Shown in pieces: positions 24,135-26,829 of a stretch of DNA of 64,000 nucleotides. The notes beneath the pieces were generated by a model. It saw only the letters and a list, made by a program, of their open reading frames with translations, was not told the origin of the DNA and did not search any database. Where the stretch lies: NCBI RefSeq assembly GCF_003790525.1, contig NZ_CP033635.1. One strand, written 5' to 3'. The translations under genes and the position numbers were made by a program. Positions within the stretch are counted from its first letter, which is position 1, and the number at the start of each line of letters is the position of its first letter. This DNA is from Escherichia coli. GTDB lineage: Bacteria > Pseudomonadota > Gammaproteobacteria > Enterobacterales > Enterobacteriaceae.

Positions 24135-24140
24135 TGCAAT

Positions 24141-24171
24141 AAAAAAGCCGCCAGGTTTGACCCCGGCGGCT
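24141..24171 (-). terminator. Terminator after ahpF
   Basis: On the minus strand agccgccgg-ggtcaaac-ctggcggc followed by tttttt. Confidence 0.55.
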
Positions 24172-24200: not shown

Positions 24201-25766
24201 TTATGCAGTTTTGGTGCGAATCAGGTAGTCAAAAGCACTCAGAGAGGCTTTGGCACCTTCGCCAGTAGCGATGATGATCTGCTTGTACGGAACCGTCGTA
24301 CAGTCACCCGCTGCGAACACGCCTTTGACGTTGGTTTCGCATTTCGCATCAATGATAATCTCGCCCATGCGGTTACGTTCGACTGCGCCTTCCAGCCAGT
24401 TGGTGTTCGGCAGCAGACCAATCTGGACGAAAATACCGGCCAGTTCGATGTTGTGAATATCGCCGCTGACACGATCGCGATATTCCAGACCTACGACTTT
24501 GCTACCGTCGCCTTTCACTTCCGTGGTTTGCGCATTCAGAATAATGTCGACGTTTTTCAGGCTGCGCAGTTTGTCCTGCAGAACCTGGTCGGCTTTCATT
24601 TCTGGCGCAAATTCCAGCAGCGTTACGTGCTCAACGATACCCGCCAGGTCAATTGCCGCTTCCACGCCGGAGTTACCGCCGCCGATAACCGCTACGCGTT
24701 TGCCTTTAAACAGCGGGCCGTCGCAGTGCGGGCAGTAGGTCACGCCTTTGGTGCGATACTGATCTTCGCCAGGAACGTTCATGTTGCGCCATTTTGCACC
24801 GGTCGCCACGATAATGCTGCGTGCTTTCAGTACCGCGCCAGAAGCTGTTTCAATCTGATGCAGGCCGCCTTCAACCGCTGCCGGGATCAGTTTGCTCGCG
24901 CTCTGGCTGTCGATCACATCAACGTCGTATTCATCAACATGAACTTTCAGCGCACCTGCCAGTTTCTGGCCTTCGGTCTTCGGTACAGAAATGTAGTTTT
25001 CGATATCAACGGTATCGAGGATCTGACCACCAAAACGTTCGCCCATCAGACCGGTACGGATGCCTTTACGTGCGGAGTAAATTGCTGCCGCTGCACCCGC
25101 CGGGCCGGAACCAACGATTAATACGTCATAAGCATCACGCTTGTTCAGCTCTTCTGCCGCACGTTTTTCCGCACCCGTATCAATTTTGGCAACGATTTCA
25201 GTCAACGTCATGCGGCCCTGACCAAACTCTTTCCCGTTTACGAACACTGCCGGAACGCCCATCACGTTGCGATCGGTGATTTCGTTCTGGAAGGTGCCGC
25301 CGTCAATTGCAGTGTGCTTGATGCGCGGGTTCAGTACGCTCATCAGGTTCAGCGCCTGCACCACGTCCGGGCAGTTGTGGCAAGAGAGCGAGTAATAGGT
25401 TTCGAATTCAAAATCACCGTCAATATGGCGAATCTGCTCCAGCAGAGACTGCGCTTCTTTCGACGGATGACCACCGGTCCACAGCAACGCCAGTACCAGC
25501 GAGGTGAACTCGTGGCCCAGCGGGGAGCCTGCAAAACGTGGTCCCTGGTTGGAACCTGGGTTGGTGATCAGGAAAGACGGCTTACGCACTGGCAAGCTGT
25601 TATCTTCTTTAAAGGTGACTTTGTCTGACAGTTCTGCGATTTCAGCCAACAGTTCCTTGATTTCTGCCGATTTAGCGCTGTCATCCAGCGTGGCAATTAA
25701 CTCAACAGGCTTGGTCAATTTCTCAAGGTAAGCCTTGAGTTGAGTTTTCATATTTGTGTCGAGCAT
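24201..25766 (-). CDS. ahpF: Alkyl hydroperoxide reductase subunit F
   Basis: 521 aa from [13 protein letters not shown]; two CxxC motifs (CHNC, CPHC) and FAD/NAD-binding GxGxxG. Confidence 0.95.
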
Positions 25767-25894
25767 GTTTATCTCCTGGGCTTTAAACATCATCATGCAA
25801 GCGGCCTCTGCGGCTACCTGGATGCAGCTTGCATCATGGTGCGGGGAAGAAAATCGGGTGCCGCAGCACCCGATTAATTACGCGATTGCGGAAC

Positions 25895-26458
25895 TTAGAT
25901 TTTACCAACCAGGTCCAGAGACGGAGCCAGAGTTGCTTCACCTTCTTTCCATTTAGCCGGGCAAACTTCACCTGGGTGAGAAGCTACGTACTGTGCTGCT
26001 TTGATTTTACGCAGCAGGTCAGACGCGTCACGGCCAATGCCTTCAGCGGTAACTTCGATTGCCTGGATGATACCCTGCGGGTCAACAACGAAGGTCGCAC
26101 GGTCAGCCAGACCTTCATCTTCACGCATGTTGTCGAAGTTACGGGTCAGGGCGCCAGTCGGGTCGCCGATCATCGCATATTTGATTTTAGCGATGGTTTC
26201 AGAGCTGCTGTGCCATGCTTTGTGGGTGAAGTGAGTATCGGTAGATACTGCGTATACGTCTACGCCCAGTTTCTGCAGTTCTTCGTAATGGTCAGCAACG
26301 TCACCCAGTTCGGTCGGGCATACGAAAGTAAAGTCAGCCGGGTAGAAGAAGAAGACGCTCCAGCGGCCTTCGGTATCTTTTTCGGTGATTTCGATGAATT
26401 CGCCGTTTTTGAATGCCTGGTTTTTAAAAGGTTTAATTTTGGTGTTAATCAAGGACAT
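25895..26458 (-). CDS. ahpC: Alkyl hydroperoxide reductase subunit C (peroxiredoxin)
   Basis: 187 aa; FVCPTE peroxidatic-Cys motif. Confidence 0.95.
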
Positions 26459-26829
26459 CTATACTTCCTCCGTGTTTTCGATGAGATGTAAGGTAACCAA
26501 TTTTTGCCGATTCGGCTAATGCGTTTCCATTATCAAATCGATAAGTTTTACCTTACAACCTTCGTAAGACAACTTTGTGAACTTTGCACCGCCAGCGGCG
26601 ATAAAAAGTAAAATGGCCCCCTTTCCAGGTGACCGTGTAATCTGAACTACCCTTTGGTATCTTCAGCGCCTGCCTGCAGGCTGAGGTGTTGCCCTTACAA
26701 ATGCAACAACGACGTGGATTACAACACCCTCATAAACAAAGGGCAATCACCTGATCTAAGCTCTTACCTATGACAGTGATAGGTTATGCCTTTTACCCGA
26801 CTTTTGCACTGACTGAAAAGGACAAATTA

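Follow-up and report, generated by a model that had tools for sequence, protein, structure and literature searches.

AhpC is among the most abundant proteins of Escherichia coli and is generally seen as the enzyme that removes most endogenous hydrogen peroxide. The task of AhpF is confined to recycling AhpC, and less of it is needed. An intrinsic terminator lies downstream of a gene and has, on its sense strand, a short-looped G+C-rich stem of ~5-14 bp, and a substrate of RNase III contains a double-stranded region of ~20-22 bp or longer. In Shigella dysenteriae, the protein ratio AhpC:AhpF is ~6:1 (PMC2716310). In E. coli K-12, the spacer between ahpC and ahpF carries an RNase III site at position 639695, which has been verified in vitro (Gordon, Cameron and Pfleger, 2017, mBio; PMC5371410). 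Reads at this position numbered 4 in the wild type and 3598 in the rnc mutant, a difference of ~900-fold. The half-life of ahpC mRNA was ~14 min with RNase III cleavage and ~6 min in the rnc mutant, while the stability of ahpF mRNA was unaffected by cleavage, and the authors proposed that exonucleases are stopped by a hairpin that remains 3' of ahpC (PMC5371410).

The other published data that bear on this spacer are 3' ends mapped by Term-seq in E. coli MG1655 under three growth conditions (Adams et al., 2021; PMC7815308, Supplementary file 1). A 3' end at 639668 (plus strand) was recovered in LB at OD 0.4 with a score of 17950 and in M63 with a score of 8697, and a 3' end at 639670 was recovered in LB at OD 2.0 with a score of 7690. 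The authors classed the ahpC-ahpF 3' end as 'orphan', Supplementary file 1 mentions neither gene by name, and the published table of Rho-dependent termination contains no region at the locus (PMC7815308). All of the experimental data at the locus come from K-12, in which a 116-nt ERIC insertion lies upstream of the hairpin and the stem has 8 bp, as against 10 bp in the DNA described here. When we searched the literature for a described ahpC terminator, for Northern data from E. coli and for a small RNA derived from the 3' UTR, nothing beyond the RNase III paper and the Term-seq tables proved relevant, and an in vitro termination assay for the ahpC-ahpF hairpin was not found in the literature searched.

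We analysed the ahpC-ahpF locus in a 64-kb stretch of E. coli DNA, referred to here as the window, in which both genes lie on the minus strand. The site belongs to the E. coli core chromosome; a 501-nt query was 100% identical to many complete E. coli genomes, and in these the same region is annotated as ahpC and ahpF. The ahpC coding sequence (25895-26458, minus; peroxiredoxin subunit C, 187 aa) was assigned from its open reading frame and its identity to annotated genomes, and has its stop codon at 25895-25897. That of ahpF (24201-25766, minus; 521 aa from the annotated start MLDTNMK) was assigned from its open reading frame and annotation. It begins with an ATG at 25764-25766, and a Shine-Dalgarno sequence, GGAG, can be read 6 nt 5' of this ATG (25773-25776, minus). 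The intercistronic spacer (25767-25894, minus) is 128 nt long and is of the allele that lacks the ERIC insertion.

A scan for promoter-like sites in the ahpC-ahpF spacer found none. A candidate ahpF promoter inside ahpC (26031-26004) scored at chance level only and was not retained. At the end of the operon, 3' of ahpF, a terminator scan and folding (-21.8 kcal/mol) located a terminator (24136-24171, minus) whose 10-bp stem has 8 G-C pairs; its hairpin (24146-24171) is followed by UUUUUUAUU. This structure is stronger than the intercistronic hairpin described below, and its U tract, UUUUUUAUU, is more continuous than the intercistronic one. At the other end of the operon, the dsbG-ahpC intergenic region contains a match to the STnc70 small RNA family of Rfam on the same strand as ahpC (26603-26696, minus; 44.1 bits with a gathering score of 40); the K-12 Term-seq 3' end at 638796, 149 nt 5' of ahpC, fits the end of STnc70 (~26607 in the window).

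The spacer contains a perfect inverted repeat of 10+10 nt with a 4-nt loop, which we call hairpin 1 (25852-25875, minus); it is recognized by its sequence, its folding and its covariation, and starts 19 nt past the ahpC stop in this allele. On the sense strand the arms are AATCGGGTGC (25866-25875) and GCACCCGATT (25852-25861), with the loop at 25862-25865. Written as RNA, the 5' arm AAUCGGGUGC (25875-25866) leads into a UGCG loop (25865-25862) and the 3' arm GCACCCGAUU (25861-25852), and the order along the sense strand of the spacer is GUUCCGCAAUCGCGUAAUU-AAUCGGGUGC-UGCG-GCACCCGAUU-UUCUUCCCCGCACC... The initial annotation had placed an inverted repeat between the ahpC stop and the ahpF start, and this is borne out by the coordinates, with 25852-25875 falling within 25767-25894. 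The repeat exists and the 22-mer quoted for it, atcgggtgctgcggcacccgat, is exact, but it lies at 25853-25874 and the interval originally given, 25841-25867, is wrong. That interval is displaced ~10 nt towards ahpF; besides the downstream tail it includes the 3' arm and the loop, but no more than two bases of the 5' arm.

Hairpin 1 is unlikely to have arisen by chance. The 38-nt segment that contains it folds with -18.3 kcal/mol, as against -6.9 ± 2.4 kcal/mol in shuffles (z = -4.7), and none of 200 shuffles was as good. When the 128-nt spacer was shuffled 5000 times with its dinucleotides preserved, ~0.1% of the shuffles contained a perfect stem of 10 bp or more with a loop of 3-8 nt, and perfect stems of at least 9 bp occur at only 8 places across the 64-kb window. 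The hairpin 1 core was found once in the window, and for an 81-nt query comprising hairpin 1 and the 3' end of ahpC, the median number of matching places in an E. coli genome was one. With Rfam 15 at a permissive E-value, no family matched hairpin 1 at its gathering score; the only overlap was with rncO, a sub-threshold chance match (19.4 bits with a gathering score of 43; E = 0.34).

Two further inverted repeats of the window can be recorded here. The longest perfect one (47054-47090) has a 15-bp A+T-rich stem and a 7-nt loop (ATAAACCCATAATTATTTCCTGTAATTATGGGTTTAT), and sits between the minus-strand open reading frames 45756-46940 and 47104-51123. A perfect 9-bp hairpin, AGAGGATGC-ACTC-GCATCCTCT, is present at 23330-23351, just past an open reading frame of 136 aa (22886-23296). 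Because the flank of the K-12 Term-seq end 643497 (minus) contains this hairpin, it is probably the terminator of the 136-aa gene.

The stem of hairpin 1, with 6 G-C pairs among its 10 bp, is what would be expected of an intrinsic terminator. It runs into a U-rich tail, UUUUCUUCCCC (25843-25853, minus), the first two U of which are also the last two bases of the hairpin 1 stem. When the tail is read from the end of the G-C core, UUUUCUU provides 6 U in the 8 nt past an 8-bp stem, in agreement with the U tract of an intrinsic terminator. The tract is nevertheless short and interrupted (4 U, C, UU, CCCC), and in Leclercia the tail is UAUCCCCU; a U tract is thus not universal. A consensus terminator scan of the window did not include hairpin 1 among its calls, presumably because the maximal 10-bp stem absorbs two Ts of the tail. 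A scan that permits a shorter stem calls TCGGGTGC-TGCG-GCACCCGA, followed by TTTTCTTC, and we therefore do not hold the omission by the consensus scan against a terminator.

The flanking sequences printed for the Term-seq 3' ends include ...TTCGGGTGCTGCGGCACCCGATTTTCTTCCCCGC and ...GCACCCGATTT (PMC7815308). They put the 3' end in the T run directly past GCACCCGA, 3-5 nt beyond the last pair of the G-C core, and alignment of the alleles maps the K-12 ends 639668 and 639670 to positions 25851 and 25849 of the window. By the published K-12 tables, therefore, a 3' end lies within the U tract in vivo, as it does at an intrinsic terminator. Term-seq does not tell termination from processing. The RNase III site is ~27 nt downstream of the Term-seq 3' end, and given this position the mapped end could be wholly a trimmed product. 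In the other direction, the 3598 reads recovered at 639695 in the rnc mutant indicate that transcription continues beyond hairpin 1 in a considerable part of the transcripts.

The RNase III site corresponds to ~25824-25825 in the window, 58-59 nt 5' of the ahpF ATG. This position is inside a second structure, hairpin 2 (25787-25842, minus), which had been overlooked in the initial annotation. Hairpin 2 is an imperfect stem of ~22 bp identified by folding (-23 kcal/mol, z = -2.6), beginning 9 nt past hairpin 1 and ending ~10 nt before the ahpF Shine-Dalgarno sequence. With only 10 bp, hairpin 1 is too short for RNase III, and hairpin 2, with its ~22 pairs, is probably the substrate. An alignment of 13 sequences from Escherichia, Citrobacter, Enterobacter, Leclercia and Superficieibacter shows that hairpin 2 is conserved in sequence, and contains no covariation within it: the arms are nearly invariant and the few variants break pairs. 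The structure therefore rests on thermodynamics together with the published cleavage. Hairpin 2 is restricted to the Escherichia-Citrobacter-Enterobacter group, and is missing in Pantoea, Erwinia, Providencia and Brenneria. A small open reading frame of 7 codons within hairpin 2, ATGATGCAA...TAG, was also considered; it was rejected because its length and sequence differ in other genera.

We then compared the spacer across species, using a scan of AhpC relatives that yielded 80 loci from different species, in most of which ahpF is the next gene after ahpC. A hairpin with the core CGGGTGC-loop-GCACCCG was present 3' of ahpC in 24 sequences of Enterobacterales, drawn from Escherichia, Citrobacter, Enterobacter, Leclercia, Superficieibacter, a Klebsiella-like genus, Mangrovibacter, Pantoea, Erwinia, Brenneria, Providencia and Arsenophonus. 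The loop varies in both length and sequence among these 24 hairpins, and the 22-mer recurs in identical form in Pantoea sp. Mb-10. In the alignment of the 24 sequences, 90% of the pair cells were paired, compared with 27-42% when the partners were slid. Compensatory changes were found at 6 of the 10 pairs of hairpin 1, and the observed covariation was reached by none of 500 shuffles. Examples are CGGAUGC/GCAUCCG in Erwinia, CGGCUGC/GCAGCCG in Enterobacter sp. Ag1 and exchanges of U-A to A-U at the base of the stem.

A stable hairpin followed by a T-rich tail was present in 20 of 22 Enterobacterales spacers, where shuffles gave 13%, and in 25 of 48 from other Proteobacteria, where shuffles gave 10%. 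The distance from the hairpin to the ahpF start is ~20 nt in Pantoea, Erwinia, Providencia, Brenneria, Mangrovibacter and Arsenophonus. In these six genera the gap between the hairpin and ahpF leaves no room for a promoter, so that expression of ahpF there would depend on read-through.

Taking these observations together, we believe, with a probability of about 0.7, that hairpin 1 combines two functions, those of a leaky Rho-independent terminator and of the protective 3' stem-loop of a monocistronic ahpC mRNA. The initial annotation had suggested a partial terminator or an RNA-stability element, a suggestion that is supported by the K-12 Term-seq 3' end, by the RNase III study and by the conservation of the hairpin with its T-rich tail. 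It is conceivable, although in our judgement unlikely, that hairpin 1 acts only as a barrier to 3' exonucleases, so that all polymerases would read through, hairpin 2 would be cut and the upstream fragment would be trimmed, with no termination at all. The short distance of ~27 nt to the RNase III site and the stabilization of ahpC mRNA by cleavage are what such a barrier would predict, Gordon et al. propose an exonuclease-blocking hairpin 3' of ahpC (PMC5371410), and the U tract is imperfect here and lost in Leclercia. A pure block, however, needs no T-rich tail, and yet tails of this kind are kept in 20 of the 22 Enterobacterales spacers, and Pantoea, Erwinia, Providencia, Brenneria and Arsenophonus, which are without hairpin 2, retain a hairpin followed by 6-8 T. 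The geometry, moreover, is that of a standard intrinsic terminator. Because terminator geometry and the T-rich tail are kept even where hairpin 2 is absent, we infer that part of the 3' ends arise from true termination.

A quite different role, in which the hairpin or its CU-rich tail pairs with the ahpF Shine-Dalgarno sequence and controls translation until RNase III cleavage releases it, appears improbable. In the minimum-energy fold of the spacer, UCUUC from the tail does pair with GGAGA in the ribosome-binding site of ahpF, and in K-12 this site is paired with the first 7 nt past the ahpC stop, in the minimum-energy fold and in the centroid alike. This pairing is missing, however, from the centroid fold of the window allele and from the consensus fold of the 13 sequences. 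Across the alignment its cells were paired in 77% of cases, compared with 77% and 71% when slid by -2 and -1 respectively, which is the level expected of any pyrimidine run set against a purine-rich ribosome-binding site; present in single folds only and with no gain over the slid controls, the pairing was rejected as unsupported. There is a slighter chance still that the palindrome is the site of a dimeric transcription factor, or a bidirectional terminator of an antisense transcript, and not a part of the ahpC sense RNA. The repeat of 10+10 bp has perfect symmetry, its core CGGGTGC/GCACCCG is unusually conserved and RNA of the plus strand also folds well (-17 kcal/mol). Against this, the one-sided changes among the aligned hairpins are wobbles in the sense orientation, 6 U-G and 3 G-U, which break the symmetry of the DNA and in the opposite strand would be mismatched, as C-A or A-C; they point to an element that acts as RNA of the ahpC strand, and away from a DNA palindrome or an antisense RNA. 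The T-rich tail is likewise found on the sense side only (the plus-strand tail is UUAAUUAC), no convergent gene ends here and the 3' end was mapped to the strand of ahpC. That hairpin 1 arose as an inverted repeat by chance, or belongs to the dispersed REP, BIME or ERIC repeats and has no operon-specific role, is hardly credible: ERIC elements do insert in this spacer in many strains, but the hairpin has a chance probability of ~0.001, is single-copy, lies outside the ERIC insertion, is present in all three alleles and is conserved across the Enterobacterales.

The spacer exists in three alleles, which we counted in 5426 complete E. coli genomes. The allele without an insertion, with a 128-nt spacer, was present in 1121 genomes (21%) and is that of the window and of strains that include O157:H7. 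A short derivative of the insert gives a spacer of 170 nt (+42 nt) in 2546 genomes (47%), and the full-length insert of K-12 gives a spacer of 244 nt (+116 nt) in 1763 genomes (32%). The K-12 insert is a dispersed repeat found at a median of 7 places per genome, which we take to be ERIC from its dispersed copies and from the ERIC core and primer sequences. It enters between the ahpC stop and hairpin 1 (25876-25894 in the window; 507-640 in the K-12 locus, L001), and hairpin 1, outside the insertion, is present in all three spacer alleles. In the ERIC-bearing alleles the two outer bases on the 5' side of the stem are changed, giving hairpin 1 a stem of 8 bp instead of 10.

A like insertion is present or absent among Citrobacter/Enterobacter species (L006, L007, L012 and L017 versus L008). 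In a DH5alpha assembly (L003; NZ_CP045741.1), ~98 nt are missing at 655-690 of the locus, a gap that opens midway through hairpin 1 and extends into the first ahpF codons, and ahpF is annotated with a different start; this could be a real deletion in that stock or an assembly error.

The polymorphism raises a speculative possibility, suggested by comparison of the alleles, that the ERIC insertion may alter the performance of hairpin 1 as a terminator or stabilizer. If so, lineages of E. coli would differ heritably in the ratio of ahpC to ahpF mRNA and in their peroxide-scavenging capacity. Separately, and equally speculatively, the core CGGGTGC/GCACCCG is unusually strictly conserved, from Escherichia to Providencia and Arsenophonus, which could mean that it has a sequence-specific second role, for example in being bound by a protein.

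A simple course of events would account for hairpin 1 as a leaky terminator and stabilizer. RNA polymerase that starts at the promoter upstream of ahpC would meet hairpin 1, with its G+C-rich stem of 8-10 bp, and because the U tract is interrupted presumably only some polymerases would stop there. Those that read through would make an ahpC-ahpF message, the apparent source of ahpF expression. In these read-through transcripts RNase III would cut hairpin 2, as the K-12 literature has shown, and 3' exonucleases would then be expected to trim the upstream fragment back to hairpin 1. The routes of termination and processing would thus converge on one stable ahpC mRNA that ends in the U tract. The expected outcome is an ahpC message that is more plentiful and longer-lived than that of ahpF, which would fit the ~6:1 ratio of AhpC to AhpF. 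The initial proposal that this spacer gives more ahpC than ahpF transcript is accordingly strengthened, both by the effect on ahpC half-life with ahpF unchanged and by the protein ratio.

We conclude that the element is already known, through the published Term-seq 3' end and the hairpin implied by the RNase III model. The design of the operon is of a textbook type, and its 3' end and the nearby RNase III processing had been mapped earlier in K-12. What our analysis adds is mainly a confirmation of the initial annotation, a corrected set of coordinates and evidence for the great age of the element and its wide distribution among ahpCF operons. A leaky terminator combined with a 3' stabilizer would be a simple, hard-wired means of setting a ratio of two products from a single OxyR-controlled promoter. 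Since hairpin 1 has no evident control by a ligand, a protein or a ribosome, it looks constitutive and not regulated.

The closest described system is the RNase III processing of the same locus (Gordon et al., 2017; PMC5371410), in which cleavage is proposed to leave a stabilizing hairpin 3' of ahpC. Hairpin 1 is the obvious candidate for this hairpin because it is the structure directly 5' of the cut. The cut itself maps to hairpin 2 and not to hairpin 1, and the spacers differ in that the K-12 one has the 116-nt ERIC insertion, which is absent here. Comparison with repeat families has to take account of the ERIC/IRU element, full-length (K-12-like) or short, that may lie directly 5' of hairpin 1 and be co-transcribed in the ahpC 3' UTR. 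Unlike ERIC, REP or BIME sequences, hairpin 1 itself is single-copy, is not within a repeat and is present with or without ERIC.

In its architecture, hairpin 1 resembles the attenuators found within operons, in having a G+C-rich hairpin with a short loop and a U tract between cistrons, with the 3' end in the U tract. It shares with attenuators that set stoichiometry a downstream gene that would rely on read-through and an upstream product that is needed in excess, and it departs from typical intrinsic terminators in that its U tract is short and interrupted. Hairpin 1 also resembles the 3' stem-loops that shield mRNA from PNPase and RNase II (summarized in PMC5371410), in that a stable hairpin stands at the mature 3' end; as with stem-loops that block these enzymes, the upstream message is longer-lived when its end is placed at the hairpin. 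Because hairpin 1 is at the same time built like a terminator, the terminator and protective roles are probably combined in this one structure.
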